Part shown: piece by piece, positions 14,549 to 41,219 of the stretch
Layout: each line of letters opens with the position of its first letter
Numbering within the stretch: the stretch's first letter is position 1
Program-made: the position numbers and the translations under genes
The notes under the pieces: generated by a model
The model's database searches: none
Seen by the model: the letters and a program-made list of their open reading frames with translations, nothing else
Told to the model about the DNA's origin: nothing
From: Burkholderiaceae bacterium
GTDB taxonomy: Bacteria; Pseudomonadota; Gammaproteobacteria; Burkholderiales; Burkholderiaceae_F
Direction of reading: 5' to 3'
NCBI GenBank assembly: GCA_035574095.1
Contig: DATLZG010000062.1
Location: 1-44,497, forward strand
Length of the DNA stretch: 44,497 nucleotides

Positions 14549-16224
14549 TGCCGCGCGTCCCCATTGCCGAGCGCCAGATACAGCCGACGGGCCAAGCCGG
14601 GGCGCGGCTCGACGTGCGCGCGCCGGCACTGACGGGCATCGGCCAGGGGCTCGGCACTGTGGCCGAGGTGGCCGAGCGCATCGCCGAAGCCGAAAAGCGC
14701 AAAGGCGATCAGCTCGCCGTGCTCGAGGCCGACCGCCGGCTCGGGGGCATCGAGACGCAACTCCTCTACGACCCGGCACAGGGGGCGCTCACCAAGCGTG
14801 GCAAGGACGCCTTCGCGGCGCCGGAATCGGTGTTGCAGACCTTCGATGAGCAAGTAGGCGAGATTGAGCGCGGCCTCACGAATGACGCACAGCGCCTGGC
14901 GTTTCGCCGCACCGCGACCATGCGCCGCCTCACCATCGACCGCGCGTTGCAGCAGCACGTCGCTGCCGAGATCCGTGCGTACGACAGCGCCGAGACCAAC
15001 GCCTACCTCGCGAATGAGATCGACGCTGGCATTGCCGCTGCCGGTGACGCTGAGCGCATCGAGCTCGCGATCGGTCGTACCCGTGCGGCGATCGTCGACC
15101 ATGCGCGCCGCAACGGCCTGCCGCCCGAGTGGCAGCAGCAGAAAATCGCCGCGACGGCAAGCCAGATCCGCGCCGGCGTCGTCGAGCGGCTGCTCGCGGC
15201 CGGGTCCGATCGGGCGGCGAAAAGCTACTACGAGACGCACCAGGCGGAGATTCTCGGCGGCGAGCGCGCGAAACTGGAAAAAGCGCTCGAAGTCGGCAGT
15301 TTGCGCGGCGAGTCGCAGCGCCAGGCCGACGCGATTCTCCTCGAGCACGGCGAGCTGGCCTCAGCGGTTGAGGCGGCGCGCCAGATCAAAGACCCCGAGA
15401 TCCGCGACGCCGTGACGACGCGAGTGAAGGATTATTTCACCACACGCCGCGCCGCCGAAGAGGAAAAGCGCGCACGGACGTTTCGCGCCGCCGCGCAGGC
15501 GCTCGAGAGGAGCGGCGGGGACTTGCGGGTAGTTACGCCGGCCGATTGGGTGACGCTCGATCCCGGCGAGCGCCGCGCGCTCGAAATCCGCTCGCGCCAG
15601 ATCCGCGAGGGCGTCGAGCCCGTCACGAATTGGGACCGCTACTATGGGTTGCTGTCGATCGCGTCCGATGAGGCGACGCGCGCGCAGTTCCTGCGCCTCG
15701 ACTTGATGCAGTATCGGCATGAATTGTCGGATACCGAGTTCAAGGATCTCGCCGGCAAACAAGCGGCGCTGCGCCAGGGCAAGCAAATCGACGAAGCGCT
15801 CGACGGTTACCGGACCAAGAAACAAATCGTCGACGATGCGCTCAACGCGATCGGGATCGATCCGACGCCGAAGGACGGCACTAAGGACGCCCGGCGCGTG
15901 AACGAATTTCGCCGCCAAGTCGATGGGCATATCCTCGACCTGCAAGCGCGCACCGGGAAGAAAGCCACCACCAAAGAAGTACAGGAGATCGTCGATACGC
16001 TCCTCATCAAGGGCCGGATCCCAGGCAGTGGGTATATCTGGGATACGAGGAAGCGCCTGTATGAGCTCGCGCCGGGCGAGGCCTTCGACGTCGACGTCGA
16101 CGAAATCCCGCGCGCCGAACGGCAGAAGATCGAGGAGGCACTCAGGCGGGGTAATCGGCCGGTGACGCCGGCGGCCATCGTGGAGTTGTTCAAGCTGAAG
16201 CACGTGCGTGAGTCCGCGCCCTGA
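14548..16224 (+). CDS. internal virion protein (putative)
   Basis: 558 aa; TAATG overlap; highly helical and charged. Confidence 0.5.
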   Translation: MPRVPIAERQIQPTGQAGARLDVRAPALTGIGQGLGTVAEVAERIAEAEKRKGDQLAVLEADRRLGGIETQLLYDPAQGALTKRGKDAFAAPESVLQTFDEQVGEIERGLTNDAQRLAFRRTATMRRLTIDRALQQHVAAEIRAYDSAETNAYLANEIDAGIAAAGDAERIELAIGRTRAAIVDHARRNGLPPEWQQQKIAATASQIRAGVVERLLAAGSDRAAKSYYETHQAEILGGERAKLEKALEVGSLRGESQRQADAILLEHGELASAVEAARQIKDPEIRDAVTTRVKDYFTTRRAAEEEKRARTFRAAAQALERSGGDLRVVTPADWVTLDPGERRALEIRSRQIREGVEPVTNWDRYYGLLSIASDEATRAQFLRLDLMQYRHELSDTEFKDLAGKQAALRQGKQIDEALDGYRTKKQIVDDALNAIGIDPTPKDGTKDARRVNEFRRQVDGHILDLQARTGKKATTKEVQEIVDTLLIKGRIPGSGYIWDTRKRLYELAPGEAFDVDVDEIPRAERQKIEEALRRGNRPVTPAAIVELFKLKHVRESAP

Positions 16225-19200: not shown

Positions 19201-22200
19201 ACGACACCCGCGAGCTGATCGAGGCGATCCATCGCCGCGGCGAACCGACGCAGTTCATCATCGACACCGCCCAGGACGTGCTCATCATCGCCAACGCGGA
19301 GGGCGAGAGCCGCGTGCCGCTGGGTGGGCGCCCGTACTACCAGCGCGACACCGACATCAAGCGCGGCGCCATCCGCATCGGCGCTGACCGGCAGATCAGC
19401 ATCCGGCTGCTCGAAAAGGCGGACCTATCGACCTTCCTGCACGAGACAGGGCACTTCTACCTCGAGGTGCTCGGCGACCTAGTGACCCAGGCCGACGCGC
19501 CGGCGGACCTCGTCAGCGACTATCAGACGATCCTCGACTGGCTCGGCGTCAAATCGCGCGAGGAGATCACGCCCGAGCACCACGAGCAGTTTGCGCGCGG
19601 CTTCGAGGCCTACCTCCTGGAGGGAAGCGCACCGAGCGCGGGCCTGCGCAGTGTGTTCGCCAAGTTCCGCGCCTGGCTCGTTGCTATTTACCGAACGATC
19701 GTTCGGCTCAACGTCACGCTGACGGACGACGTGCGCGGCGTGATGGACCGGCTGCTGGCGACCGAGGAGGAGATCGCCGCGGCCGAGCGCGAGGCCGAAA
19801 TCACGCCGATCTTCGCGACCGCGGCCGACGCCGGCATGAGCGAGACCGAGTTCGCCGCGTACCGTCACACGGTCGCGCAGGCCTCGGTCGCCGCGCGCGA
19901 GACGCTACAGCGGCAACTGCTCGCCGAGCAGCAGCGTGCGCACAAGCAATGGTACCGCAAGGCGCGCGCCGCCATCCGCGCCGAGGTCGCGGCCGAGGTC
20001 GACGCGCAGCCAGAGCAGCGCGCGGCCGCGCTCCTCGCGCTGGGCACGCTCCCCGACGGCTCGCCGCTGCCCGAGGGGATGCGCCCGTTCAAGCTCGATC
20101 GGCAGGCCATTGTAGACGTCTACGGCGCGGACTTCGCGAAACGGCTCCCGCGCAACATGCTGACGCGCGAGGGGGGTGTGGCGCCCGACCCGGCGGCCGA
20201 GGCGCTCGGCTATCCCACAGGCGAGCAGCTGCTGCTGGCGCTGGTGAACCTGCGCAAGCGCGACACGCTCATCGAGGCCGAGACCGACGCGCGTCTGCGC
20301 GAGCGTTACGGCGATCTGCTGCTTGACGGCACTGCGCTCACGGCCGCGGCGCAGCAGGCCGTCAACGGCCCCGAGCGCGCCAAGGTGATCGCGGCCGAGC
20401 TGGCGGCGCTGCGGCGCAAGGCGCGCGAGGTCCGTCCGTTCGTGCGTGCCGAACAGCAGCAGCAGGCGGCAAAACAGCGCGAGGGCCTCTCGACGCTGCG
20501 CGGGACGCAGCTGCCGGTCGGGCAGATCCGCGCCATGGCCGAGGGCATGATCGCGCAGAAGCGCGTGCGGGAGCTGAACCCGAACACCTACCTCGTCGCG
20601 GTCCGGCGCGCGGCCAAGCAGGCCGTCGAGGCTGCGGCCCAGGGCGCCTACGACGTCGCGGCGGCCGCGAAGCAGCGTGAGTTGCTGAACCTCGAGCTCT
20701 ACCGGGCGGCGGTCGCGGCGCACGAGGAGGTCGAGGCGATCGCCGATGACATGCAGCGCTTCGGCAAGACCAAGACCCGCGAGCGTATCGGGCGCGCCGG
20801 CGCCGACTACCTCGCGCAGATCGACGCGCTCCTCGATCGCTTCGAGTTCAAGCGCGTCTCCACGCGCGAGCTCGCGAACCGCCAGGCGCTCGCGGAGTGG
20901 ATCGCGCGTAAAGAAGCCGCCGGCGAGACGCTCGGCGAGGAGCTCGCGATACCGCCGCCCCTGATCGACGAGGCGCGGCGCACGAACTACCGCAACCTCA
21001 CGGTCGAGGAGCTGCGGGGACTGCGCGATGCGGTCAAGCAGATCGAGCACTTCGCGCGGCTCAAGAACAAACTCCTCGCCGCGAAGGTCGCGCGCGAGCG
21101 CGAGGAAGCACGCGCCGAGCTCCTCACAGCGATCGAGGCGAACCTTGCGGACCGCGGGCCACCGCCGATCAGCAAGAACGCGCTCTCGGCGACGCAGCGC
21201 CTCGGTGCCCGGGCGGCGGCGTTCGACGCCTCACTCCTCAAGATGGAGCAGCTCGTAGACTGGCTGGACGGCGGCAAGCTCGACGGGCCGTGGCACCGCT
21301 ACCTCTGGGACGGCGCGGCCGACGCCCAGGCGGCCGAGCTCGACTACACACAGCGAATCACGCGGCGCCTGGCGCAGGCGGTGCTCAACATCCCGCGCGA
21401 GATCACCAAGCGGATGCGCGAGCGCGTCGCCATTCCCGGCGTCGAGCGGACGATGACGCGCAAGGATCTGCTCGGCGTCGCGCTCAACGTCGGCAACGAT
21501 TCGAACTACCAGAAACTCCTCAAGGGCATGGGCTGGACCGAGTCGCAAGTCGAGCAGATGCTAGCGCGCCTGACGAAAGCCGAATGGGACTTCGTGCAGT
21601 CGGTGTGGGATACGCTCGAATCGCTCTGGCCCGACATCGCTAGGCTCCAGAAGGACCTGACTGGCCTCGAGCCGGAGAAGATCGCCCCGCGCCCGGTGCC
21701 GACGCGCTTCGGGCAGTACCGCGGCGGCTACTACCCGGTGATCTACGACCCGCTCGCCTCCGAACAGGGGGAGCTGCAGCTCGCCGCGCGCATCGGCAAC
21801 CTGGTGGAGGGCACCTACACGCGTGCGACGACGCCGAAGGGGCACACGAAGGCGCGTGTCGAGGAGTTCGCGCGGCCGTTCGACCTCGACATCGACAACC
21901 TGCCCGGGCACATCGCCGGCGTCGTCAAGGACCTGACGCACCGCAAGTGGCTCCTCGACGCGAACTGGATCGTCCACGACCGCGAACTGCGCGCGGCGCT
22001 GCGGCGCCACTTGGGCGACGAGTACGTTGGGCTCTTCGGAGACTGGGTGCGCCATGTGGTGAATGACCGCAATTTTGCCTCGCTGCGCTCGCTCGGGATC
22101 TGGCGCCGCACGATCGAGCAGCTGCGCTACAACGTGATGATTGCCGCGATGGGCTTCAAGGCGGCGACCATGATGACGCAGATCGCCGGCGCCGGGCCCG

Positions 22201-23144
22201 CGATCGAGGTGATCGGCGGCAAGGAGGGCGACGGGCGCAAGTATTTCCTGCGCGGGCTCGGGCAGTTCCTGCGCCGGCCACGCGCGACCTACGACTACGT
22301 GACCGGGCTCTCGGGCGAGATGCGCCACCGCGTGCAAACGCGCGACCGCGACCTACGCGACAAATTGCGACTCCTCCAGGGGCGCGAGGATTTTCTCGCC
22401 AAGGTGCAGGAATTCGCGATGCGCGGCATCGTCTACGCGGAGATGATCGTGTCGCTGCCGGCCTGGCTCGGGGCCTACCAGAAAGCCATCGAGGCGGGTG
22501 CAACGCCAGAGACGGCGATCCGCGCCGGCGATCGCGCCGTGCGGCTCTCCCAGGGCGCCGCCGGCGCGAAGGACCTGGCCGCCGTGATGGCGAAGAACGA
22601 TCTGTTCATGCGCACCATCACGATGTTCTATACGCCCTTCAACGCGCTCTACAACCGGCTGCGCGACGTCGGGCACTCGGTGCACGGGATCCGCGACGTG
22701 CCGCAGGCGGCGTTTCGCTTGTGGTGGGTATGGCTAATGCCCGCGGTGCTGGCCGAGCTCCTCGCCGGTCGCGGGCCCGGCGATGACGATGAAGGCGAGT
22801 GGTGGCTGCGCACGATACTGCTTTACCCGACGCTCGCGGTGCCGTTCCTGCGCGACCTCGCCGTCGGCACGTTCGGGGAGTTCGGCTACCAGCTCTCGCC
22901 CCTCGCACAGGTCGGCGAGGCCGTAACGCGTACCGTGCAGAAAGCCGGCAAAGTCGCCGCCGGCGATGCCGACCTTGAGGAGCTCGTGAAGCCGGCACTG
23001 CGCACGACCGGGTACCTGCTGGGGTTGCCGACCGGCCAGGTCGAGATTACGGGCGGCTATCTCTACGACTTGGCGCTCGGTGACGACCCCGAAGATCTCG
23101 GCGCGTTCGCCCATGACCTGCTGTACCGCCGCCGTGCGGAATGA
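16224..23144 (+). CDS. giant internal virion / ejection protein (2306 aa)
   Basis: Single uninterrupted ORF with a TGATG overlap. HETGH (HExxH) at aa 1073-1077 (nt 19440-19454). Several hydrophobic segments near the C-terminus. Occupies the position of T7 gp16. Confidence 0.75.
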   Translation: MPPLNEYDDILARGQAPAGNEYDELLAEQRRGEISTLRQSFAAADPDRRAKALALAERTRLPAEVVERNLELVQQQDAIARNDYDALLDRMPRTAEWLMESPDNAAVAHDDLDNLGTFEALTTAMSTGYRHGRQTTELGRLGFALAGGNRDPTLIRRVETLERELAAAPGGRGFLAQWVYPAAKIVGQMLDSGTKALEGGFAGASAGAAAAAIAGQIGPQFFTPEEIVTVPVGAGAGFVAGLGAGFWGDVYQVEAGHSYLTLSGIRGAGGATIAESTKRAAATAVGLINATLESVGVYFVTAPFKAAAKKFVTEGTKQAIMKPTVAAAAANFAKAYGTAVAGEVTTEVLQESANIMVEELAKLATDGDFDTLLNSPEERDAAVERLFAIASETFRGMALVGLPGATVNLAADVRNVSRARENQQFFEALGDTATRSKLRERLPAKLQELLERVTHDGPVENVYIPVEQFATYFQTARLDPRAVAAELLGDPAAYDAALQTGEDLKIPTARYAATLAASDHHKALVPHLRLHPDEMTPAEADAFVESLKQEAAAPADVTGESARSVREDVLGQLLGLGFEPGTAEAYAELYESTFRTLGQRAGVDPHALYQRYGLKIERPTPEVLRQHGETDALDVMIERLRKGDLPTDRDIFGPSLVDFLVSRGGLREQGGELAARDARLARRGLVREQGLELDHAAELAVEAGYLAERDPNQLLEAIGAELAGEPVFARGRANTRLLDVRGAIEEIGTQLRALGIDVRQVTDNERIKRALRTGESIGGPVRELAQRVREFFQGRPATAPAETLDQFLYRREQARRSRTREAGLVVGLRTQEGEIIAGEPGQLHFQLLRAYPEEAQGAEFGYVDKNGRFYTRGEAHQAFLVTDASQLAAVRDTGLFQDIIPDRETSPIQAPDGTPYLGVSEGRGRTALRGYPISREEADRLADFNVVFRVAVKGPADTTGLEGWFLDARFTPDARTASYRPAAAGAKVALFDDDTRELIEAIHRRGEPTQFIIDTAQDVLIIANAEGESRVPLGGRPYYQRDTDIKRGAIRIGADRQISIRLLEKADLSTFLHETGHFYLEVLGDLVTQADAPADLVSDYQTILDWLGVKSREEITPEHHEQFARGFEAYLLEGSAPSAGLRSVFAKFRAWLVAIYRTIVRLNVTLTDDVRGVMDRLLATEEEIAAAEREAEITPIFATAADAGMSETEFAAYRHTVAQASVAARETLQRQLLAEQQRAHKQWYRKARAAIRAEVAAEVDAQPEQRAAALLALGTLPDGSPLPEGMRPFKLDRQAIVDVYGADFAKRLPRNMLTREGGVAPDPAAEALGYPTGEQLLLALVNLRKRDTLIEAETDARLRERYGDLLLDGTALTAAAQQAVNGPERAKVIAAELAALRRKAREVRPFVRAEQQQQAAKQREGLSTLRGTQLPVGQIRAMAEGMIAQKRVRELNPNTYLVAVRRAAKQAVEAAAQGAYDVAAAAKQRELLNLELYRAAVAAHEEVEAIADDMQRFGKTKTRERIGRAGADYLAQIDALLDRFEFKRVSTRELANRQALAEWIARKEAAGETLGEELAIPPPLIDEARRTNYRNLTVEELRGLRDAVKQIEHFARLKNKLLAAKVAREREEARAELLTAIEANLADRGPPPISKNALSATQRLGARAAAFDASLLKMEQLVDWLDGGKLDGPWHRYLWDGAADAQAAELDYTQRITRRLAQAVLNIPREITKRMRERVAIPGVERTMTRKDLLGVALNVGNDSNYQKLLKGMGWTESQVEQMLARLTKAEWDFVQSVWDTLESLWPDIARLQKDLTGLEPEKIAPRPVPTRFGQYRGGYYPVIYDPLASEQGELQLAARIGNLVEGTYTRATTPKGHTKARVEEFARPFDLDIDNLPGHIAGVVKDLTHRKWLLDANWIVHDRELRAALRRHLGDEYVGLFGDWVRHVVNDRNFASLRSLGIWRRTIEQLRYNVMIAAMGFKAATMMTQIAGAGPAIEVIGGKEGDGRKYFLRGLGQFLRRPRATYDYVTGLSGEMRHRVQTRDRDLRDKLRLLQGREDFLAKVQEFAMRGIVYAEMIVSLPAWLGAYQKAIEAGATPETAIRAGDRAVRLSQGAAGAKDLAAVMAKNDLFMRTITMFYTPFNALYNRLRDVGHSVHGIRDVPQAAFRLWWVWLMPAVLAELLAGRGPGDDDEGEWWLRTILLYPTLAVPFLRDLAVGTFGEFGYQLSPLAQVGEAVTRTVQKAGKVAAGDADLEELVKPALRTTGYLLGLPTGQVEITGGYLYDLALGDDPEDLGAFAHDLLYRRRAE

Positions 23145-23213: not shown

Positions 23214-25703
23214 ATGACGGTTCCGGTCAGCTCGCGGCGCAACGACTACGTCGGCAACGGCGCGACGGCCACCTATTCCTACACGTTTCGGATCCTGGAC
23301 GACGACGACCTCATCGTCAGCGTCCAGGACACTAGCAACAACGTCACCAAGCTCACCAAAACCACCGACTATACCGTCCTCGGCGTCGGGCTGTTCTCGG
23401 GCGGCTCGATCACGTTCGTGAACGCGGGCCAGCCTTGGCTCACGGGGGGCAACCTCAAGACCAGCTACAAGCTTACCATCCGCGGCAAGCCGGTGCTCGA
23501 GCAGCCCTACGACGCGAAAAACCGCGGCGGCTTCTTCCCCGAGGACCACGAGACGGTGTTCGACCGCCTCGCACAGATTGACATCGGCCAGCAAGACGAG
23601 ATCAACCGCGCGCTGCGCTTCCCGGAAACCGACGGCGTAGCGCTGAACGCGGTGTTCCCGCCGGCCGCTGCGCGGGCGAACAAGTTTTGTGCGTTCGACG
23701 CCGCCGGCGGGGGGCCAGGCGCGGTGCCGGTATCGGCGTTCATGGAGACGGTGTTGGACGACACCGCTGAGGCGGCGGCACGTAAAACACTTAAAGCCCT
23801 TGGCTCTGAAATGAGTGACATTAAAACGGCCAGCTATACGGTTATCGCCGGCGATCACGGGAAAATTATACCTATGGACGCGTCTGGGGGATCGGTAACC
23901 GTAACGCTTCCGGATGCCGCGACAGTTGGAAACGGCTTTGCCGTGACTATCTGTAAAGCCGACCGTGGTCAAAACTCCAATGCCGTCAATATTACCGGCG
24001 TCAGCGGCCAACGTTTCGGTTATGACGGCCCGCAGTTCAACATCTCTGGTGCCGTTAATAATGGTTCCGGTCTTATCCGCCTAACAACATCCACCGATAA
24101 CCGAATTTTCACGACGGGCGAGCGTGTTGTGGTCGCCGGCGTCGTAGGGACGACGGAAGCGAACGGCACGTGGACCGTTACGCGTGTCAGTATGACCCAG
24201 GTCGATCTGCAAGGGTCAACGTTTACCAATGCGTATACGAGCGGCGGTACGATCACGCTTATTCGCGAAACAGTCAAACTGCGCGTCAGCGGGTCGTTTG
24301 TAACACTGGTTTCCGACGGCACGCGGTGGGTTCCGGTCAACGGCTCACCCGACATCCTGCATTGGGCGCGCGATGTGTTGTTTCACCATAACAACGCTTG
24401 GGCTGGTTTTGGCACAAATAATAGTGTGGCGGCACCTATCGACTTTTGGTGGGATGCCGGCGGGTTACGGCTGCACGCCCGGTCCTTCATCGCCTCGGAA
24501 ACGGGCGATGCACCAGAGTTGGCTATTCAACGCGCCGACGTGAATGCTAGTTCGACTTATCCAGACGGGCCGGGACTTCTGCGGCCAGCGGTTAATACGA
24601 ACATGGGGCTGATCCATTGGCGCGGCTGGGCTTCCGATGGTTCGCCTTCGTGGGCGAATCGCAGCGCGCAGTTGTACGTTCGGGCCGCCGAGAACATCGC
24701 GCAAGCCAACAATGGTGGTCGGCTCATTATCGCGACCACCCCGATTGGCACGAACGCGGGGGCGATAGATCGCTTGGAAATCGACGATCAGGGGCGGCAT
24801 CTAATTAATACGACGCGCAACAGTGCGCGAGTGACGGAAGATATTACCGGCGCCAGCGACATAGGATTAAACATTCGCGCGACCAACGGGGCTTACGCGG
24901 GGAACGTCGTGGAACTTGAATCAACCATCGCCGGCGCGGGCACGTTCTATTTCCTACGGGCGCGCAGCAACATAGGGGGAACCCTCGACGAAGAATTTTT
25001 GGTGCGCGGCGATGGCACGGTATTCTCGGACGCCGGCACGGCCATGTCTAGCCCCGCTGACTACGCAGAGATGGTACGCGAGTGGTGGGACGGGAATCCG
25101 AATCACGAAGATCGGAGTGGGTGCTCGGTGGTCCTGGTAGACGCGACCGACGGTCGCGTGATTAGGCCGGGCGATTCGGGACACGTGGATACGCGCATTC
25201 GGTTGGCTAATTCTCTACCGCACGTTCAACGCGAGGCCATCATCGGCGTCGTTTCCGCCAACCCCGCGGTGAAAGGCGCGGCGGCATGGAATCACTGGAT
25301 CGGTAAATATGAAAAAGACGCCTACGGCCGGTATGTGATGGAGCGGTGCGAATACGTAACATGGACAGAACACAACATAGAGTACCGGCGCGAACGCGGC
25401 CCGGACGGTGAATGGATCACGTTGCCATCGACGACGCGCGAAATTCATCACACCTACCCGATCGACCAAATACCGAAGGATATTGTCGTGCCGCCAGACG
25501 CCAAACGTGTCGCGGGATCACGGCGCAAGCTTAATCCGGCCTATGATCCGTCGCGGCCGTATATCCAGCGTGAAGATCGCCCGGAGTGGGATTACGTAGG
25601 TCTGCTTGGACGGTTACCCCTGCGCGCCGGAGAACCGACGCATCCGCGATGGGTTATGACCGGGCGATTAACAGATGAGGTCAACGAATGGTTGGTGCGC
25701 TGA
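23214..25703 (+). CDS. tail fibre/tailspike with C-terminal Peptidase_G2-like intramolecular chaperone domain
   Basis: The N-terminal YVGNGATATYSYTFRI..DDDLIV pattern is typical of a fibre adaptor. The C-terminal ADYAEMVREWWDGNPNHEDRSGCSVVL...IIGVVSANPAV...YIQREDRPEWDYVGLLGRLPLR segment matches the autoproteolytic IMC domain from memory. Confidence 0.8.
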   Translation: MTVPVSSRRNDYVGNGATATYSYTFRILDDDDLIVSVQDTSNNVTKLTKTTDYTVLGVGLFSGGSITFVNAGQPWLTGGNLKTSYKLTIRGKPVLEQPYDAKNRGGFFPEDHETVFDRLAQIDIGQQDEINRALRFPETDGVALNAVFPPAAARANKFCAFDAAGGGPGAVPVSAFMETVLDDTAEAAARKTLKALGSEMSDIKTASYTVIAGDHGKIIPMDASGGSVTVTLPDAATVGNGFAVTICKADRGQNSNAVNITGVSGQRFGYDGPQFNISGAVNNGSGLIRLTTSTDNRIFTTGERVVVAGVVGTTEANGTWTVTRVSMTQVDLQGSTFTNAYTSGGTITLIRETVKLRVSGSFVTLVSDGTRWVPVNGSPDILHWARDVLFHHNNAWAGFGTNNSVAAPIDFWWDAGGLRLHARSFIASETGDAPELAIQRADVNASSTYPDGPGLLRPAVNTNMGLIHWRGWASDGSPSWANRSAQLYVRAAENIAQANNGGRLIIATTPIGTNAGAIDRLEIDDQGRHLINTTRNSARVTEDITGASDIGLNIRATNGAYAGNVVELESTIAGAGTFYFLRARSNIGGTLDEEFLVRGDGTVFSDAGTAMSSPADYAEMVREWWDGNPNHEDRSGCSVVLVDATDGRVIRPGDSGHVDTRIRLANSLPHVQREAIIGVVSANPAVKGAAAWNHWIGKYEKDAYGRYVMERCEYVTWTEHNIEYRRERGPDGEWITLPSTTREIHHTYPIDQIPKDIVVPPDAKRVAGSRRKLNPAYDPSRPYIQREDRPEWDYVGLLGRLPLRAGEPTHPRWVMTGRLTDEVNEWLVR

Positions 25704-31832: not shown

Positions 31833-31952
31833 CGCGAAAACGCGTTGCTAAGTCCTTGAACGCATTGACACGTGCCTGCACGCCCCCGACGTGGCCCAAA
31901 CTGGCGCTAAGTTGTTGGTAGGGCGTGGAAATCCTGGGTTTCGTACCGCTCA

Positions 31953-31997
31953 TTCGTAATCAGTAGGTCCGCAGTTCGAGTCTGCGCACCGGCACCA
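31953..31997 (+). other. attP core candidate: 3' 45 nt of a tRNA-Thr(CGU) gene
   Basis: Anticodon loop TTCGTAA, stem TCAGT, variable AGGTC, T-arm CGCAG-TTCGAGT-CTGCG, acceptor CACCGGC, A, CCA. No matching 5' acceptor or D-arm upstream. The integrase lies about 830 nt to the right. Confidence 0.7.
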
Positions 31998-32823: not shown

Positions 32824-33993
32824 TCATTTCTGCTCCCGCAACACCGTCAAATTCCCGCGCACGCGTACCGGTATCCCGCCGACGACGTAATACTGCCGCA
32901 TCGCCTCGGTCTTGTGGCCGCCCTTGTTCGTTGCCGCGCCGACGAGGCGCGCCTCGTCGGTGAGCCCTTTCTTGCGCAGGTCGCGCGGCTGGTAGCGGCC
33001 GGCCAGCCCGGCCGCGGCCGCGGCCTCGGCAAAGCGGCGCGACAAGTAATCACGATTTATCGGCCGACCGACGTCGCGCCGGCGGCTGCCCTTCGGGAAT
33101 ACCACGAAGTACGGGCTCACGATCCCCTGGTCCTTCTTCCACTGGCGGAACCAGGCGAGCGTCGCCTCGATGCCGCCCGCGGTGCCGATGCGGTCGCGAA
33201 TCTCGACCGCCTGCTCGTTCTTCGTCGGCATGAATGAGACGACAACGTCGTCGCCCTCGTAGCGGATCCCGGGCGGCTCGTCTTTCAGCCGCAGCACGTC
33301 GCTTGGACGGTGCGAGATCAGGTAGATCAAGTCGCACGCGCGCGCTAGCCATTCGGGCAGCTTGTCCGTGATCGCGAGATAGTGATCCATCGGGACGTAC
33401 ACCATGCGCCGCCCAGTCGCCTGGCGGTCGACGTCGGCGATCGGGTTGGCGTCGAGGAGGCCTTCGGCGACGAGGTCTTGGCACAGGCGTGACAACACGG
33501 CCTTCTGGTAATTGTAGTAATTGGGCGAGCCGATCCAGCGCGCGAGGTACTGACGCAGGTGGCGCGTCGTCAGTCCTCCGACGGCGAGCGTCTGGAACGG
33601 TTCCCAGGCCTCGACGTGGTGCGCGAGCATCCGGCCGTAGTCGTCGCGCGTCTTCGGCGCGAGCGCTTTGCCGCCGCGCTTGGCGAGGAGTTTCGGCAGC
33701 CGCTCCTCGCGCCATTGTTTTGCGTACTGCGCGACGGTCAGGACATCGCCGCCACTGGCCGCTGTCTCGAGCTTGCCGAGAAGCTGCTCGGCTGCGGCCG
33801 CGGTCTGGGCGGCGTCCCACTTCGCGCGAAACGCCCAATAGATTTCAAGCGCGCGCTGACGCTCGCGGATCCCGTCGAGCGTGACAGCTTTCTTCATGCC
33901 GGCGAGCTTAATGTAGGCGTCGCGGCCGGCGTAGATGTAGAGCCCGGGCGGGAGGTCTTTTTGTCCGTCGTCGCGTGGGCGGCCCATGCTCAT
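32824..33993 (-). CDS. int: tyrosine integrase
   Basis: 389 aa. The SHRPSDVLRL (Arg) and GGHKTEAMRQYYV (His...Tyr) regions look like tyrosine-recombinase motifs. Adjacent to xis and the tRNA fragment. Confidence 0.85.
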   Translation of the reverse strand: MSMGRPRDDGQKDLPPGLYIYAGRDAYIKLAGMKKAVTLDGIRERQRALEIYWAFRAKWDAAQTAAAAEQLLGKLETAASGGDVLTVAQYAKQWREERLPKLLAKRGGKALAPKTRDDYGRMLAHHVEAWEPFQTLAVGGLTTRHLRQYLARWIGSPNYYNYQKAVLSRLCQDLVAEGLLDANPIADVDRQATGRRMVYVPMDHYLAITDKLPEWLARACDLIYLISHRPSDVLRLKDEPPGIRYEGDDVVVSFMPTKNEQAVEIRDRIGTAGGIEATLAWFRQWKKDQGIVSPYFVVFPKGSRRRDVGRPINRDYLSRRFAEAAAAAGLAGRYQPRDLRKKGLTDEARLVGAATNKGGHKTEAMRQYYVVGGIPVRVRGNLTVLREQK

Positions 33994-34229
33994 CAGTGTG
34001 CCCCCGGAGCCCGTAAGCCGGCAAGGATCGCCCGGGCAAGGGCGTCCGGGTCCTGTCCCCCCGCGGGTTTAGCGGGCTGCACCAGCGCGTCGAGGTCCAC
34101 GAACCACTTGCCGCCGATCTTGCGCGCCGGCAGGACCTGGTTGCGGCACCAGCGACGCAGCTCATCCGGCGGCCGCGGTGCGCTCCGAAAGCAGATTTTG
34201 TTGAGGTCGTCGAGGGGGACGAGGTTCAT
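33993..34229 (-). CDS. xis: excisionase / AlpA-like HTH protein (78 aa)
   Basis: MNLVPLDDLNKICF...RNQVLPARKIGGKWFVDLDAL matches the excisionase-family HTH. ATGA overlap with the int start. Confidence 0.7.
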   Translation of the reverse strand: MNLVPLDDLNKICFRSAPRPPDELRRWCRNQVLPARKIGGKWFVDLDALVQPAKPAGGQDPDALARAILAGLRAPGAH

Positions 34230-34465
34230 GATGGAGACACCCCAGCAGCCTGGCGCGTGTTCACGGATTCCGCCCCCCCCGACGATCGCGCGCAGCGCCA
34301 AGTACCAAGTCTGGAAACGTGGGCGCGTCGAGAATTTCGACCCGGTGAACCGCTGGCCGTGGGACCTATTGCCGAGCTGCCGTCGTTCGCGATTGTAGCG
34401 ACCCCGAGCACGTGGTTGCGGGACGGGTAAATGGCGCTCACGAGCTCGATGGTGACGAGGATCAT
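34226..34465 (-). CDS. hypothetical ORF (79 aa), possibly frameshifted
   Basis: ATGA overlaps at both ends. GC3 bias supports this frame only for about the first 31 codons, then moves to the xis frame. Confidence 0.3.
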   Translation of the reverse strand: MILVTIELVSAIYPSRNHVLGVATIANDGSSAIGPTASGSPGRNSRRAHVSRLGTWRCARSSGGAESVNTRQAAGVSPS

Positions 34466-34728
34466 CAGTGTCCGCCGCACTGCAAACAGGTGTCGCGGCC
34501 ATCTACCTTAAGTACGGCATTGCGCCCGCAGCGACGGCAGCGGCGGGTGTCGTGGTGGAATTTGTCGATCGACATGATGAACTCGCGCGCTTGCGTCCAG
34601 GCCTCGCGCCAGCCCATGCGGTGACCGGGATAGACGAGCATAACCTTGCGCGTGCGCATGTCGAACCGGTAGAGCGGCGACCAGCGCAGGCCGTAGAGAC
34701 CGATGGCGGTGAGGAGGTGGCGGATCAT
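34465..34728 (-). CDS. zinc-ribbon protein (87 aa)
   Basis: C-terminal CRRCG...CLQCG; good GC3. Confidence 0.6.
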   Translation of the reverse strand: MIRHLLTAIGLYGLRWSPLYRFDMRTRKVMLVYPGHRMGWREAWTQAREFIMSIDKFHHDTRRCRRCGRNAVLKVDGRDTCLQCGGH

Positions 34729-35217: not shown

Positions 35218-35328
35218 TTAGAGCACCTCTTCGCCGACAAAGTCGAAAAGCTTCTCCTTAGCGCCTTCTTCGTCCTTGGCCTTGAAGTAAAGCGTGTCGC
35301 CATGGGCTTCAATCTTAAATATTTTCAT
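35218..35328 (-). CDS. small acidic protein (36 aa), not in ORF track
   Basis: MKIFKIEAHGDTLYFKAKDEEGAKEKLFDFVGEEVL. GGAGGA sits 6 nt before the ATG. Overlaps the csrA-like 3' end by 14 nt. Confidence 0.45.
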   Translation of the reverse strand: MKIFKIEAHGDTLYFKAKDEEGAKEKLFDFVGEEVL

Positions 35329-35494
35329 GATTTTCCTCCGATGTGGGCGGCAGGTTCTCGCCGCGTTGGATGGATACGTCGGGAGGCGCCTCGATGCCGA
35401 GTCGCACGATGGCGCCGCGCACGTACACCACCTGCACCGTGATGTCGCCGTCGATGACGATGGTTTCGCCGATGCGCCGCGTGATGAACAGCAT
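35315..35494 (-). CDS. csrA: CsrA/RsmA-family RNA-binding translational regulator (59 aa), not in ORF track
   Basis: MLFITRRIGETIVIDGDITVQVVYVRGAIVRLGIEAPPDVSIQRGENLPPTSEENHENI. About 23 of the first 48 residues are identical to E. coli CsrA by hand alignment (MLxxTRRxGET, VRxG, AP, VS, R44). GGGAGG lies 5 nt upstream. Confidence 0.85.
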   Translation of the reverse strand: MLFITRRIGETIVIDGDITVQVVYVRGAIVRLGIEAPPDVSIQRGENLPPTSEENHENI

Positions 35495-35508
35495 CGAGGC
35501 CTCCCGGA

Positions 35509-35721
35509 TCAGACGACCACGCGCACGTGCCCGTACCGCGCCGTGAGCGGCGGCAGACCGGTGCGCCGGCGCCAGGCGCGTGCCGCGCCGCGCTCGCGTT
35601 TGATCTGCCGTAGCGAGCGCGCGAGGCGGACCGCGCCGTGCGGAGTCAGCACCCGCACGAGCTGCGCGCCGTCGTACGTGGCCGGTTGATCGTCGATGGT
35701 GTGCATGTAGTACCTGTTCAC
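35509..35721 (-). CDS. hypothetical protein (70 aa)
   Basis: GTG start with AGGAGGG 4 nt upstream; high GC3. Confidence 0.6.
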   Translation of the reverse strand: MNRYYMHTIDDQPATYDGAQLVRVLTPHGAVRLARSLRQIKRERGAARAWRRRTGLPPLTARYGHVRVVV

Positions 35722-35754
35722 GATTCCCTCCTGTGCGTTCCCGGAGGGCTATTG

Positions 35755-36708
35755 TCAGATGATTTCCGGCGGCGGCGTTTGCTTCTCGGACGGCGGTTCC
35801 TCCGGCGGCGGCTCCGCGGCCGGATGCCCGGGCGGTGGATCGGTAACCGCGCCGGCCTGCTTGTCGACGACCTGCTGCAACCGCCGCGGGCGCTTGGGCT
35901 TGTCGGTGGCGGGCGCGGCCGGCTCGACCTGCGCGGCGCCCATGTCGCGCGCCTTGTTGAGGTTGTAGAGTTCGTCGTCGCGCTCGATGACGCGGCGGAT
36001 TTCATCCTCTTTGTCGGTCGACATGGGCAGGCGTTTTGAGAGGCGGCGGATCGCCGACTTGCGCGCCATTTCCGGCCACCAGTCCTCCCAGGGGCCGACC
36101 GGATTGCCGTCCTTGTCTTTGTTCGTGGACATCGCCATGACGTTGCGGATCTGCTCAAGCGTCATTACCTCGATGTACACCTCGCCGCCTTTCGTCTTCG
36201 CGAGCGCGTACACGAGCCGCGGTTGGCCGCGCTCGCCGTCGAGGAGCGGGCGGTGCGTGATGTGCTCGCCCTCGTCGTCGACCCAATAGCTGAACGTGTC
36301 TTTGTCATAGACGACGTTGGCCGTCAGCATCGCAAGTTCGCCGCTGTTGCGTACTTTTTTCGCGATGCCCCACACCATCGGCATGTAGCGCGCGACCTTG
36401 ATCCATTTGTCGCCCACCTTCTTGTTGGCGTCGATTAGTGCGGCCTCGCGTCCGTCCGGCACGAGGCCGTCCTGGGCGCACTTGACGCACTCCTGGTAGA
36501 GTGAGGCACGGTCGACGTTTTGCAGGCGCGGATTCTGCATGATCGCGGTGACGGCCACGCGGCGAAACTTGTCGACGCTGATGTGCGCGGGCAGCGCGGC
36601 TCTGAGCTGCTCGGCCATCGCCGGGCTCATCAAGACGCTGCGGATTTCCTCTATTGGTTTTAACTGCTTGCCGGGTTGCGCCGCCGGCGCGGGTTTCGTG
36701 TCGTTCAT
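35755..36708 (-). CDS. recT: RecT-family single-strand annealing protein
   Basis: 317 aa. The motifs SLYQECVKCAQDGLVPDG.EA and AMSTN...GPWEDWWPEMARKSAIRRLSKRLP are RecT-like. AGGAGA RBS. Paired with a YqaJ exonuclease. Confidence 0.85.
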   Translation of the reverse strand: MNDTKPAPAAQPGKQLKPIEEIRSVLMSPAMAEQLRAALPAHISVDKFRRVAVTAIMQNPRLQNVDRASLYQECVKCAQDGLVPDGREAALIDANKKVGDKWIKVARYMPMVWGIAKKVRNSGELAMLTANVVYDKDTFSYWVDDEGEHITHRPLLDGERGQPRLVYALAKTKGGEVYIEVMTLEQIRNVMAMSTNKDKDGNPVGPWEDWWPEMARKSAIRRLSKRLPMSTDKEDEIRRVIERDDELYNLNKARDMGAAQVEPAAPATDKPKRPRRLQQVVDKQAGAVTDPPPGHPAAEPPPEEPPSEKQTPPPEII

Positions 36709-37064: not shown

Positions 37065-37253
37065 TCAGCGGCAGACCGTGACGTCGGCACGCACCTCGCA
37101 GCGCGGCTGCGTGTTGAGCCAAATAGCGAGACCGACGGCGCCGAGGCACAGTATGGCCACCACGATCGCGATAGCAATCGCGTCCAGTTGGCTCCGCCGG
37201 CGCTGCTCGATGGGGCGCCAGCCGGGGTGGTCGCCAAAGGTTCTGATCTTCAC
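37065..37253 (-). CDS. small membrane protein (62 aa)
   Basis: TM segment AIAIAIVVAILCLGAVGLAIW; ATGA-type overlap with the exonuclease. Confidence 0.55.
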   Translation of the reverse strand: MKIRTFGDHPGWRPIEQRRRSQLDAIAIAIVVAILCLGAVGLAIWLNTQPRCEVRADVTVCR

Positions 37254-38239
37254 GCTGCCTCCTTGCCCTTCTTCGGCGTGATCTTGAAGTTGCGGTACCC
37301 CTCGCGCGTGTACTTAACCTCCGCGGGGCCGACGAGGCCGCACGAGATCGTGAACCCCTCGGCGATCACCTTCTCGGCATCGCCGATCAGCGTCAGCAGC
37401 TCGGCCTTGCGCGCCTGCTTCTCCTCGCGCGCGTTTTTCTCCGTGTCCGCCCACTGTGTGTATTGCGCGCACAGTGATGTGATGCGCTCATCACCGCGCG
37501 CGTCGAGCACTTTGCCGGGCTCGGCGAACCCGTAGAGCTTGGCGATGACGTTGGCGTCGAGTTTGAAATCCGGCGCCGGTTCGACGCCCGCAGTGACGCC
37601 GCGCCAAAATTCGTCCACCAGCGTGACGAGCTTCCGGCCGACCTCGCGATCGCGCCGGCGCGGCACCACAATCGGCCGATTGCCGCCGACTAGGGCCGCG
37701 ATCACGCCCCATTCGCGGTTGACGCATTCGAGTTGGTGCTGGAGTTGCACCTCGATATACACCGGGGCCTCGATCGAAACGGCGCCGTCGTCGTTTTTTT
37801 CGACGAGCCAGTCCTTGAGAAATACGAGCGCGTCGACGTTCTTGATCTCGAGCACGCCGGGGCCGTGGTCTTCGTAGAGATCGACGAGCTCGCTGATATA
37901 GGCGTTACGCCCGACACTGTCGATACCGACGATCTCGTAGTCGAACGAAGATCCCATGCGGCAGTCGTCATGGCGCGCATAATAGGAGGCACGCCTGACC
38001 TTGACGGCGTAGTCCTCGCCGACGCCGCGCGCGATCGCCTCCTCGAGGCGCGTGCCCCACTTGGTGCGTTCGGTGGCCTCGAACGCGACGTCGTAGCGGC
38101 CGGCCTTGCGCTGGTGCAGCTCGAACAGCGTGAGGCGCGGATGCAGGCCGAGTAGTGCGGCGGACTCAGTGCTGGTCACGTCCTGCGTGCGCAGGTCGAG
38201 CCAGTGCTGTTCGGATTCCGGGTAGATTATTTTCGGCAT
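37250..38239 (-). CDS. YqaJ-like (lambda Exo-type, PD-(D/E)XK) recombination exonuclease
   Basis: W..R....TSTESAALLG at the N-terminus, GSSFDYEI and VLEIKNVD core motifs, QLQHQ. Upstream partner of recT. Confidence 0.8.
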   Translation of the reverse strand: MPKIIYPESEQHWLDLRTQDVTSTESAALLGLHPRLTLFELHQRKAGRYDVAFEATERTKWGTRLEEAIARGVGEDYAVKVRRASYYARHDDCRMGSSFDYEIVGIDSVGRNAYISELVDLYEDHGPGVLEIKNVDALVFLKDWLVEKNDDGAVSIEAPVYIEVQLQHQLECVNREWGVIAALVGGNRPIVVPRRRDREVGRKLVTLVDEFWRGVTAGVEPAPDFKLDANVIAKLYGFAEPGKVLDARGDERITSLCAQYTQWADTEKNAREEKQARKAELLTLIGDAEKVIAEGFTISCGLVGPAEVKYTREGYRNFKITPKKGKEAA

Positions 38240-38280: not shown

Positions 38281-38314
38281 GTTGAGCTTATCTCATCGTT
38301 GAGCTTATCTCATC
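38281..38314. promoter_or_regulatory. Two perfect tandem 17-bp operators GTTGAGCTTATCTCATC (OL-like)
   Basis: Copies at 38281-38297 and 38298-38314, between the cI stop and the start of the leftward early operon. Confidence 0.6.
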
Positions 38315-38351
38315 ATGGATAAAAGCGCAAGGGGCGCCGCGAACCGCTGTT

Positions 38352-38975
38352 TTACGGACGAATCCAGCGCACCGGCGCTGCCCAGTCTACTTTGCCAACG
38401 CAGAGCGGATGCCCGCCCAGCGCCGGCGCGACGGCGTACGTCATGCTGGACTCGCGCGCCAGGCGGCAGAGCCGCAGCGAGGCCTTGGTAGGCTTGGCGA
38501 TCACGAGCCGCCCGAGCAGGTCGCTCCCGATCCGGGTCGCCGGCCGGCCGGTGAAGAACACCCAGCCGTTAAGCGGCGTGAGCGGTCCGGACTCGGCAAT
38601 GCAGAGCAGCGCCAGGCCCTCGAGACTGAAGTCGGCCGGCGCGACAGTTTCGCCGACGGGCGGCTCTGATGACTTGGCCGTGAGATGCACAACCCCTTCG
38701 CCGTCAATATGGCCGGCGAGCGGTACGTGGAACTCAGCGACTCGGATCCCGGCGTGCCGGATCACCTCGATCAGTGAGACATTCAAGATCTCCGCGATGT
38801 ACTCGGCTTCGATGAGGCGCATCTCGCGCTTGCCGCTAAACGTGTGGTAAATCGACCAGACGTCGACCGCGAGCCGCCGACCGAGCTCGCACAGCGAGAT
38901 TCCGCGCTCCTTGAGGCGCTCCTCGAACCAGGTCTTGTCGACCTTGCCGGTGTCGTACTTCCGTTTGGTTGGCAT
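38352..38975 (-). CDS. cI-like repressor (207 aa): N-terminal HTH, C-terminal S24/LexA-like region (tentative)
   Basis: ISLCELGRRLAVDVWSIYHTFSGKR looks like an HTH. Divergent from the cro-like gene. ATG 38975 is chosen because an operator copy lies inside the longer form. Confidence 0.7.
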   Translation of the reverse strand: MPTKRKYDTGKVDKTWFEERLKERGISLCELGRRLAVDVWSIYHTFSGKREMRLIEAEYIAEILNVSLIEVIRHAGIRVAEFHVPLAGHIDGEGVVHLTAKSSEPPVGETVAPADFSLEGLALLCIAESGPLTPLNGWVFFTGRPATRIGSDLLGRLVIAKPTKASLRLCRLARESSMTYAVAPALGGHPLCVGKVDWAAPVRWIRP

Positions 38976-38986
38976 TTGCGGCGAGT

Positions 38987-39003
38987 GTTGATGAAATCTC
39001 ATC
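38987..39003. promoter_or_regulatory. Degenerate operator copy GTTGATGAAATCTCATC (13/17)
   Basis: Lies in the cI-cro intergenic region just upstream of the cI ATG. Confidence 0.4.
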
Positions 39004-39006
39004 ATC

Positions 39007-39035
39007 TTGCAACCGCACTTTCGTGCTGATAAAGT
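39007..39035 (+). promoter_or_regulatory. PR-like promoter TTGCAA-N17-TAAAGT
   Basis: Immediately followed by the operator at 39036-39052 and the cro-like ATG at 39066. Confidence 0.45.
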
Positions 39036-39052
39036 GTTGAGTTTATCTCATC
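39036..39052. promoter_or_regulatory. Operator GTTGAGTTTATCTCATC (16/17 to the OL copies)
   Basis: Abuts the -10 element of the rightward promoter. Confidence 0.6.
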
Positions 39053-39065
39053 ATCGATACCCGAC

Positions 39066-39813: not shown

Positions 39814-41219
39814 GCTTCGCCCTGCGGCCCTACCAGGACGCCATCCTCGCGGAGGTCCGCGAGCACCTGCGCGCCGGTCGCCGCTCCATCCTGATTCAGG
39901 CGCCGACCGGCTCCGGTAAGACCGCGCTCACCGCGTACATGGCGGGCACCGCCGCCGAGCGCGGCCGCCGGGTCTGGTTCACCGTGCATCGCAGAGAATT
40001 GATCCGCCAGTCCATGCTCACCTTCGGCGAGGTCGGCATCGCGTACGGCGTCATCGCTGCCGGTTTCGCGCCAGATCCGCGCCGCCGGGTGCAGATCTGC
40101 GGGATCCAGACGCTCGGCCGCCGCGCCGAGCGGCTCAAGCGCCCCGACATCATTATCGTCGATGAGGCGCATCACATCGCGGCGAGCTCGTGGGCCGCGA
40201 TCCTCCAACAGTTTTCAGGCGCCATTGTCATCGGTCTCTCTGCCACGCCGGAACGGCTCGACGGGGCTGGGCTCTCAGCTCATTTCGAGGTCATGGTCTG
40301 CGGGCCGTCGACGGCGCAGCTGATCGCCGAGGGCTGGCTCGCGCCGTACCGCCTGTTCGCGCCGCGGCCGCCGGATCTCGCCGGCGTGCACACCAAGCTC
40401 GGCGATTTCGTGCGCGGCGAAGTATCGGCCGTGATGGACACGCCGCGCCTTACGGGAGACGCGATCCAGCATTACCTGCGCCTGGCGCGCGGCAAACGCG
40501 CGCTGGCGTTCGCCTGCTCGATCGAGCACAGCCGGCACATCGTCGAGCAGGCCCGAGCCGCCGGGATCCGCGCGGCGCACGTCGATGGAGAAACCCACCA
40601 TGTCGAACGAGACGCGGCCTTCCAAGCGTTCGCGCGCGGCGAAATCCAGTTCCTCAGCAACGTTGAGCTCGCGGGCGAAGGGGTCGATATCCCCGGTATC
40701 GAGGTTGCTATCCTCCTTCGCCCGACACAGTCCCTCGCCCTCTACCTGCAGCAAGTCGGCCGTTCTCTCAGACCCGCCGCCGGCAAAACCGAGGCCCTCA
40801 TCCTCGACCATGCCGGCAATGCGCTTCGCCACGGACTCCCCGACGACGAGCGGCTTTGGACGCTCGAGGGCCGCCGGCGCCGGCGCCTGGCTGACGCAGA
40901 AAATCAGGTTCCCATAAAAATATGCCCGCGCTGCTTCCTCGCGTGCGCATCGCCGGCAGCAGCGTGCAAGCACTGCGGATTCGTGTTTCCGGTCGAAGGC
41001 CGCCAAGTCGAAGAAGTCGCGGGCGAGCTGGTCGAGGTGGACCCCGACGTCGTGCGCGCGCAGCGTAAGCGTGAGGAGCGTCGGGCGTCGACGCTCGAGG
41101 ACCTGGTGGCGCTCGGCCGTGCCCGTGGCTACCGTTACCCCGAGCAGTGGGCGCAGTATGTCTACAGGGGGCGCAAGGCGGCGCGTGCGCGGTACGGGGC
41201 AGTGAGGTGGGGCACATGA
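39810..41219 (+). CDS. SF2 DEAD/DEAH-box helicase (469 aa) with C-terminal zinc ribbon
   Basis: Motifs: QAPTGSGKT, IIIVDEAHH, LSATPER, QQVGRSLR, CPRC...CKHCG. ATGA overlap; internal start of track ORF 39618..41219. Confidence 0.85.
   Translation: MSFALRPYQDAILAEVREHLRAGRRSILIQAPTGSGKTALTAYMAGTAAERGRRVWFTVHRRELIRQSMLTFGEVGIAYGVIAAGFAPDPRRRVQICGIQTLGRRAERLKRPDIIIVDEAHHIAASSWAAILQQFSGAIVIGLSATPERLDGAGLSAHFEVMVCGPSTAQLIAEGWLAPYRLFAPRPPDLAGVHTKLGDFVRGEVSAVMDTPRLTGDAIQHYLRLARGKRALAFACSIEHSRHIVEQARAAGIRAAHVDGETHHVERDAAFQAFARGEIQFLSNVELAGEGVDIPGIEVAILLRPTQSLALYLQQVGRSLRPAAGKTEALILDHAGNALRHGLPDDERLWTLEGRRRRRLADAENQVPIKICPRCFLACASPAAACKHCGFVFPVEGRQVEEVAGELVEVDPDVVRAQRKREERRASTLEDLVALGRARGYRYPEQWAQYVYRGRKAARARYGAVRWGT

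Follow-up and report, generated by a model that had tools for sequence, protein, structure and literature searches.

The 44.5-kb stretch of DNA that was analyzed (the window) appears to be a whole contig of an uncultured, temperate epsilon15/BPP-1-like podovirus. Its structural and packaging genes include those for the large terminase, portal, major head protein, and tail fiber, and it also encodes an integrase, an excisionase-like protein, RecT, and an exonuclease. The portal is 45% identical to those of epsilon15 and BPP-1. Searching PLSDB with the portal gave only matches of about 45% identity, and the best 120 portal homologues listed were mostly metagenomic sequences. No near-identical DNA to the window was found among GenBank phages. 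A candidate attachment site was located at the following position.

31945 to 31997, plus strand: 3' half of a tRNA-Thr(CGU) ending in CCA (partial ARAGORN call, sequence reading, and matches to annotated tRNA-Thr genes)

This tRNA-Thr(CGU) segment, some 800 bp away from the integrase gene, is the probable attP core. ARAGORN reported it as an atypical tRNA of 87 nt, the anticodon of which has 4 bases. The segment has no exact match in the phages or plasmids searched.

Two observations concern the structural genes. A 2,306-aa ORF of the structural module (positions 16224 to 23144, plus strand) begins with a domain of the LPD22 "large polyvalent protein" type (77 bits) and probably encodes an ejected or internal virion protein. 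The 829-aa tail-fiber/tailspike gene (positions 23214 to 25703, plus strand) matched known tail proteins over its N-terminal ~137 residues only and failed the coding filter (GC3 of at least 0.70) passed by most other large genes, which suggests that the receptor-binding part was exchanged recently.

Leftward gene run and location of the csrA-like gene

The csrA-like gene is the sixth of about eleven packed genes transcribed leftward in the order exo, orf, recT, orf, csrA, small orfs, xis, int. The intergenic gaps across this run are short, or the genes overlap. The relevant features are listed in the direction of transcription.

37250 to 38239, minus strand: first gene of the operon, YqaJ/RecE-type recombination exonuclease (Pfam YqaJ, 58.5 bits; phrog_434, 2.1e-50)

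35755 to 36708, minus strand: recT, single-strand annealing protein, upstream of csrA (Pfam RecT, 110.8 bits; phrog_148, 2.4e-54)

35509 to 35721, minus strand: 70-aa ORF between recT and csrA (GC3, 0.89)

35500 to 35505, minus strand: Shine-Dalgarno sequence GGGAGG of csrA, read directly from the sequence

35315 to 35494, minus strand: csrA-like gene, 59 aa, consisting of a minimal CsrA domain (residues 1 to 46) and a 13-residue acidic, proline-containing tail

35218 to 35328, minus strand: 36-aa ORF, uncertain gene (MKIFKIEAHGDTLYFKAKDEEGAKEKLFDFVGEEVL), the beginning of which shares 14 nt with the end of csrA

33993 to 34502, minus strand: excisionase-like gene, weak assignment (phrog_629, 2.8e-07; Pfam HTH_17, 21.3 bits, under the cutoff of 27)

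32824 to 33993, minus strand: integrase, last gene of the leftward operon (phrog_1, 3.9e-18)

The csrA-like gene had been placed between recT and xis in the original prediction. This placement agrees with the present analysis, recT being located upstream and the weakly matching xis-like gene downstream, followed by the integrase gene. Several small ORFs separate csrA from the excisionase-like gene. The 70-aa ORF, which has no family match in Pfam or PHROGs, ends 14 nt ahead of the csrA start codon. The 36-aa ORF lies in an unusually AT-rich patch and has no counterpart in the sister lineage described below, in which the slot is taken by a ParB_N gene, with start and stop codons overlapping as ATGA; this region looks like a mosaic junction.

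The csrA-like ORF comprises 59 codons plus a TAA stop, with an ATG start codon at positions 35494 to 35492 and the GGGAGG motif at positions 35505 to 35500, leaving a spacer of 5 nt. The ORF, the motif, and the spacing had been reported previously and were read again from the sequence, and the translation quoted at that time is identical to the one obtained here. The start codon and the strong Shine-Dalgarno sequence are both intact. The reading frame has a GC3 of 0.78 and a GC2 of 0.37 in a genome of 65% GC, values that are typical of the real genes of the window. The gene exemplifies how real regulators can be hidden by ORF cutoffs set at 60 aa.

Assignment to the CsrA/RsmA family

The 59-aa protein had been assigned to the CsrA/RsmA family by hand alignment, and the profile search proposed at the same time supports this assignment. 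Pfam PF02599 (CsrA) gave a score of 64.7 bits (E = 7.7e-18; gathering cutoff, 27 bits), with residues 1 to 46 aligned on positions 1 to 46 of the 53-position model. Among PHROGs, the protein matched phrog_9500 ("CsrA-like regulator"; 1.5e-16), phrog_5527 (1.5e-15), and phrog_8397 (also "CsrA-like regulator"). Nine distinct PDB sequences of CsrA, RsmA, and RsmE were matched with E values of 3e-10 to 2e-05. Comparison with E. coli CsrA by BLASTP revealed 23 identities in 46 gap-free positions (50% identity; 76% positives), close to the ~23 matches in 48 positions counted by hand. The NCBIfam equivalogs for housekeeping CsrA were missed, with scores of 61.4 for a cutoff of 73 (NF002469) and 58.7 for a cutoff of 70.1 (TIGR00202), indicating that the protein is a divergent member of the family rather than a copy of a host gene. 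Based on these profile scores, it should be named "CsrA family protein" and not a host-type carbon storage regulator.

The AlphaFold2 model of the protomer, obtained with 14 homologues as input, has a mean pLDDT of 76.7. Strands beta2 to beta4 are formed, and residues 1 to 10 and 36 to 44 are extended and unpaired, as expected for a domain-swapped dimer modeled as a monomer. The size and the fold agree with the small, single-domain protomer of five successive beta strands that is typical of the family. In a Foldseek search of the PDB, the best 15 matches were all CsrA-family chains (TM score of about 0.65 and rmsd of 1.6 to 1.7 Å over 44 residues), and the first match after these had an E value of >1. 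The best fold matches among the BFVD viral models were the phage CsrA-like proteins of Parlo, LASTA, and Pavtok.

Proteins of this family use beta1 of one subunit and beta5 of the other to bind RNA, L4 and R44 being especially critical (PMC7652899). The original prediction stated that the RNA-contact N terminus and the equivalent of R44 were retained, and residues L2, R6, R7, V40, R44, and E46 were indeed found to be identical to those of E. coli CsrA, with R6, R44, and E46 invariant across the 14 homologues aligned. Two changes are conservative (L4 to Ile and V42 to Ile). The replacement of I47, a contact residue in complexes of E. coli CsrA, by Asn is not. The beta core that builds the dimer interface is well conserved.

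Absence of the C-terminal helix

Downstream from R44, the protein ends with GENLPPTSEENHENI, which includes G45, P49, and P50 and is modeled as coil, with a pLDDT of <50 at residues 55 to 59. The usual C-terminal alpha-helix following beta5 is absent. The two closest homologues end in the same manner (...SIQRGE-x2-3-P), and this common ending, combined with the coil of the model, points to a subfamily without the usual helix. Tails of at most 16 residues or containing proline were present in 13 of the 85 CsrA homologues fetched, both viral and chromosomal, including copies from Planctomycetes. Helix loss is therefore not peculiar to this lineage, other viral and chromosomal homologues having short tails as well. 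The missing helix is a variant feature and does not provide grounds for excluding the protein from the CsrA family.

The border between the core and the helix of E. coli CsrA is at R44/E45, and CsrA(1-44) engineered as a linked dimer still assembles but no longer binds the antagonist CesT (PMC5864733). By analogy, helix loss in the phage protein could change its sensitivity to protein partners. Moreover, RNA affinity or specificity may differ from that of E. coli CsrA because of the absence of the helix and the replacement of I47 by Asn. A bolder proposal is that the helix-less, 59-residue "minimal CsrA" represents a phage-specific subfamily that escapes host antagonists or has an altered RNA specificity, acting as a phage-private switch of translation in a host lacking Csr or as a dominant partner poisoning host CsrA dimers. 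We regard this proposal as a long shot. If true, the fold would be used here through a mechanism distinct from those of Bci and RsmQ (see below). A natural "core-only" CsrA could in any case help to test the contribution of the C-terminal helix.

Conservation of csrA in a second phage lineage

Exhaustive scanning with HMMER identified 8,996 representative clusters of the CsrA family at an E value of 0.001 or less, the query representing its own 50%-identity cluster. The sequences closest to the 59-aa protein (P0002, P0003, and L086) are 65 to 67% identical to it. In the assembly collection, 32 blocks contain P0002, and gene order was constant in the 24 contigs read: the genes for a helicase, an HTH protein, and a cro-like protein are on one strand, and those for a repressor-like protein, a YqaJ exonuclease, small ORFs, RecT, a small ORF, and CsrA are on the other. 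In this sister lineage, the csrA homologue (65% identity) thus occupies the same slot following recT. Its Shine-Dalgarno sequence is GAGGAGG at the same spacing, and the gene is translationally coupled to the downstream gene, as in the window.

Proteins encoded by the neighboring genes of the window and of the sister lineage have diverged to similar extents, with identities of 72% for the exonuclease, 66% for RecT, 48% for the 70-aa ORF, and 74% for an 89-aa ORF (orf89). On the divergent side, identities are 55% for the helicase and 53% for the cro-like protein. The repressor, at 35% identity, has the same position in L001. The counterpart of the 70-aa ORF is in the same position in L001 and L004 and is absent in L086. 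The similar divergence of the neighbors and the common slot indicate that csrA was inherited with the module rather than recently inserted. The csrA gene is an accessory of the exo-recT module that has been stably kept in two lineages.

A search based on a RecT alignment recovered only three distant loci (33 to 41% identity), none with csrA within 5 kb, too few for statistics on the linkage between csrA and recT, and a RecT-only scan of viral contigs found no loci. Scanning GTDB genomes with a signature of the subfamily recovered chromosomal CsrAs only, at 61% identity or less.

The ratio dN/dS for csrA of the window in comparison to the L001 and L086 homologues is about 0.2 to 0.37, with dS near saturation. 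The ORF might alternatively be a decaying or chance frame without function, since it is very short and its expression is predicted from the sequence. Such a frame is barely conceivable in view of the Pfam E value, the intact start codon, the strong Shine-Dalgarno sequence, and the coding-type GC3. It is also at odds with a dN/dS ratio well under 1 and with the retention of the gene, in the same slot, by a lineage in which protein identity has fallen to about 65 to 70%. This explanation is already effectively refuted by the sequence comparisons, according to which the ORF at positions 35315 to 35494 is a real gene under purifying selection. The Pfam score, the fold match, the retained RNA-binding residues, purifying selection, and synteny lead to the same identification, and by these measures the 59-aa protein is a genuine but divergent member of the CsrA/RsmA family.

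Other domain architectures were encountered among the homologues. Two Planctomycete proteins of ~250 aa, encoded at positions 8001 to 8771 of L050 (chromosome of Schlesneria sp. T3-172) and 3971 to 4720 of L032 (a Gemmataceae MAG), combine an N-terminal CsrA domain (55 to 57 bits) with a C-terminal response-regulator receiver domain (66.6 bits), which suggests control of CsrA by phosphorylation. The CsrA proteins of L024 and L054 also have long tails. Many top HMMER matches, including P0135 (159 aa) and P0138 (303 aa), contain two to four tandem CsrA domains per chain, and Pfam confirmed 2 and 4 CsrA stretches in such proteins, which would be single-chain pseudo-dimers or pseudo-tetramers.

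Putative signals for early expression

The region upstream of the exonuclease gene contains the following elements.

38281 to 38314, minus strand: 17-nt operator-like motif, GATGAGATAAGCTCAAC, in two perfect tandem copies directly ahead of the exonuclease gene

38326 to 38341, minus strand: terminator-like hairpin after the repressor-like gene (consensus match only), separating this gene from the PL-like region

38352 to 39005, minus strand: putative immunity repressor, 217 aa, weak assignment (sub-threshold HTH_3 at residues 29 to 80, 14.8 bits for a cutoff of 23)

38985 to 39055, no strand assigned: OR-like region separating the repressor-like gene from the cro-like gene and containing two variants of the motif, GATGAGATAAACTCAAC and GATGAGATTTCATCAAC

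The repressor-like gene is divergent from an 87-aa gene with weak, sub-threshold similarity to Cro/YdaS. The tandem repeats probably correspond to OL/PL, and the layout of the operator motifs suggests a lambda-like arrangement of OL/PL and OR, the repressor being named by its position and its sub-threshold HTH. The 17-nt repeats also offer a probable OL/OR pair for a 217-aa repressor that is otherwise unrecognizable. The scan for promoters revealed no sigma-70 consensus in the gap ahead of the exonuclease gene, and no terminator-like site was found on the minus strand from position 38326 to the integrase gene. Based on the shared operator repeats, the tight packing of the genes, and the lack of a terminator, expression of csrA early, on infection or induction, is a reasonable inference. 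The assignment of csrA to a leftward early operon in the original prediction is in agreement with the repeats and the gene packing at this same level of confidence.

Candidate RNA targets

Rfam searches of the whole window at gathering thresholds detected no RNA family, including CsrB, RsmY, and RsmZ. On the coding strand, GGA motifs are most densely clustered at positions 35720 to 35839 (minus strand), where seven occur within 120 nt. This cluster covers the 3' end of recT, which is proline rich, as well as the Shine-Dalgarno sequence of the 70-aa ORF. The antisense stretch at positions 40617 to 40736 contains an equal number of motifs, indicating that the cluster is not significant on its own. 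In the predicted fold of the csrA leader, the Shine-Dalgarno sequence is in a stem rather than in a loop, and stability was no better than that of shuffled sequences (z = +0.88). Neither the csrA leader, nor the junction between csrA and the 36-aa ORF, nor the GGA cluster at the 3' end of recT gave folds more stable than shuffles.

These results bear on the possibility that the protein acts mainly on phage messages, controlling internal timing or the lysis-lysogeny switch, for example, by damping early genes (the 36-aa ORF, xis, and int) or late genes with AGGAGG sites. In both lineages, the gene following csrA is translationally coupled to it, with the GGAGG of that gene located within the 3' end of csrA (for the window, that of the 36-aa ORF within the end of the csrA coding sequence). 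AGGAG(G) sites are present at several structural genes (8443, major head; 10213; 10597; 14081; and 23214, tail fiber). In addition, CsrA paralogues carried by Legionella ICEs are tied to control of the transfer of the element itself, according to work cited in PMC7366521. On the other hand, a GGA is found in the Shine-Dalgarno window of only 20 of the 39 predicted starts, early and late genes alike, and the start regions of xis, int, and three of the small ORFs are devoid of GGA. With GGA-containing Shine-Dalgarno sequences in about half of the genes, early and late, no specific set of targets can be read from the sequence. Folds and GGA scans revealed no hairpin with a GGA in the loop and no paired-site architecture, and the phage and plasmid homologues that have been studied alter host traits (PMC7546807 and PMC9928087). 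We consider action mainly on phage messages unlikely.

Proposed function

We consider it highly probable that the csrA-like gene encodes a dimeric protein of the CsrA/RsmA family that binds GGA sites and exerts translational control early in infection. Leftward transcription from a repressor-controlled, PL-like promoter would lead to production of the protein on infection and on induction. By analogy with characterized members of the family, the 59-aa polypeptide would form an interleaved homodimer, in which beta1 and beta5 of opposite subunits would create two RNA-binding surfaces recognizing GGA in or near Shine-Dalgarno sequences. Binding would block translation or, occasionally, promote it. 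The most likely role would be an early retuning of the translation of host mRNAs, possibly extending to phage mRNAs, as for prophage Bci and plasmid RsmQ. We infer dimerization, GGA binding, the timing of expression, and all statements about targets.

The protein might instead act indirectly on the Csr/Rsm system of the host, either by soaking up CsrB, RsmY, or RsmZ, thereby freeing host CsrA, or by forming mixed dimers; without its helix, it may escape antagonists of the CesT type. There is a precedent in the plasmid-encoded RsmQ, which binds AnGGA hairpins and the host RsmY and RsmZ and heterodimerizes with host Rsm proteins, including RsmA and RsmE (PMC9928087). The conserved beta core of the dimer interface, the absence of a helix after R44 in the model, and the behavior of E. 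coli CsrA cut at R44 (see above) are also consistent with this mode of action. Against it, the host may lack both CsrA and decoy RNAs. Some csrA-positive phages infect hosts lacking a chromosomal csrA (PMC7366521). Furthermore, a tail that is short or without a helix is no hallmark of phage proteins, since such tails are also found in the chromosomal Planctomycete copies. On balance, indirect action through host Csr components seems quite unlikely.

A third function can be considered, namely, that the protein is an anti-defense factor repressing the translation of host immunity genes, such as those of CRISPR-Cas, in early infection. RsmA directly represses three CRISPR-Cas systems of Serratia, and exploitation of this control by phage homologues has been proposed (PMC8450108). 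Expression from an early operon would fit such a role. The proposal is, however, purely hypothetical even in the source paper, and no defense-system context was found here. We consider a dedicated anti-defense role very unlikely.

Comparison with known systems

The original prediction considered a csrA copy in a phage early operon to be poorly characterized or undescribed. This claim of novelty did not survive comparison with databases and the literature. In addition to the PHROG families, tblastn identified homologues in 80 deposited phage records, many of which are annotated as "carbon storage regulator". Sobrero and Valverde listed 30 csrA-positive phages in 2020, amounting to 1.2% of phage genomes and including F116, H66, phi297, AUS531phi, and Burkholderia and Ralstonia phages, some with hosts devoid of a chromosomal csrA (PMC7366521). 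In 2021, Campa et al. used PF02599 to survey GenBank and IMG/VR and put forward an anti-CRISPR function (PMC8450108). The csrA gene of F116 is downstream of a CI-like repressor gene and upstream of exonuclease genes, and that of AUS531phi is in one operon with genes for a PD-(D/E)XK nuclease and RecT. Deletion of bci from AUS531phi changed infection curves, motility, biofilm formation, and pyocyanin production (PMC7546807). The csrA genes associated with TldR belong to chromosomal loci (PMC13418256). Because phage csrA genes, their placement in early operons, and their phenotypes are already in the literature, the gene described here opens no new question.

In comparison to chromosomal E. coli CsrA, P. 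aeruginosa RsmA, and P. fluorescens RsmE (1Y00, 1VPZ, 2BTI, and 2JPP), the protein belongs to the same Pfam family and has the same protomer fold, with 50% identity over residues 1 to 46 and retention of the beta1 (L2, R6, and R7) and beta5 (V40 and R44) residues. It differs from these proteins in being phage encoded, in its sub-equivalog score, in the lack of the helix, and in the replacement of I47 by Asn and of L4 and V42 by Ile. No cognate decoy small RNA is encoded nearby, as judged by Rfam within the window.

The "RsmM"-type proteins Bci and F116p24 (AUS531phi, phi297, F116, and H66) are similarly encoded by temperate phages, in this case of Pseudomonas, in a leftward operon that follows a CI-type repressor gene and includes exonuclease and RecT genes. 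Identity with the window protein is 56% over the 46-residue core. Bci and F116p24 are 123 aa long, with a C-terminal extension of ~70 residues, and are encoded upstream of recombination genes, whereas the window protein is a bare 59-aa domain encoded directly downstream of recT in an epsilon15/BPP-1-like podovirus.

Phage-encoded proteins with the CsrA fold are also known from Burkholderia and Ralstonia podophages (Bcep22, BcepIL02, DC1, CSP3, and GP4) and from Parlo, Pavtok, and LASTA, which infect Serratia, Erwinia, and Klebsiella (PMC7366521 and PMC8450108). Homologues of the Bcep22 and Parlo groups are too divergent to be detected by tblastn with the window protein as the query. The csrA gene of CSP3 is part of the structural module, where it adjoins the gene for the major capsid protein (PMC10269572), in contrast to the location of the window gene in a recombination operon.

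RsmQ of plasmid pQBR103 and CsrT/LvrC of Legionella ICEs are likewise CsrA paralogues of mobile elements that join or override host translational control. Their carriers are a plasmid or ICEs, and their expression is constitutive or linked to transfer rather than phage-early. Homologues of regulators carried by mobile elements provide one route by which phages and plasmids control host physiology, CsrA being a regulator of motility, biofilm formation, metabolism, and even CRISPR-Cas. The window gene shows that csrA can be stably inherited together with an early RecT/exonuclease module. What is new in comparison to the known systems is the presence of a very divergent, minimal, helix-less CsrA in an epsilon15/BPP-1-like podovirus, a modest difference.
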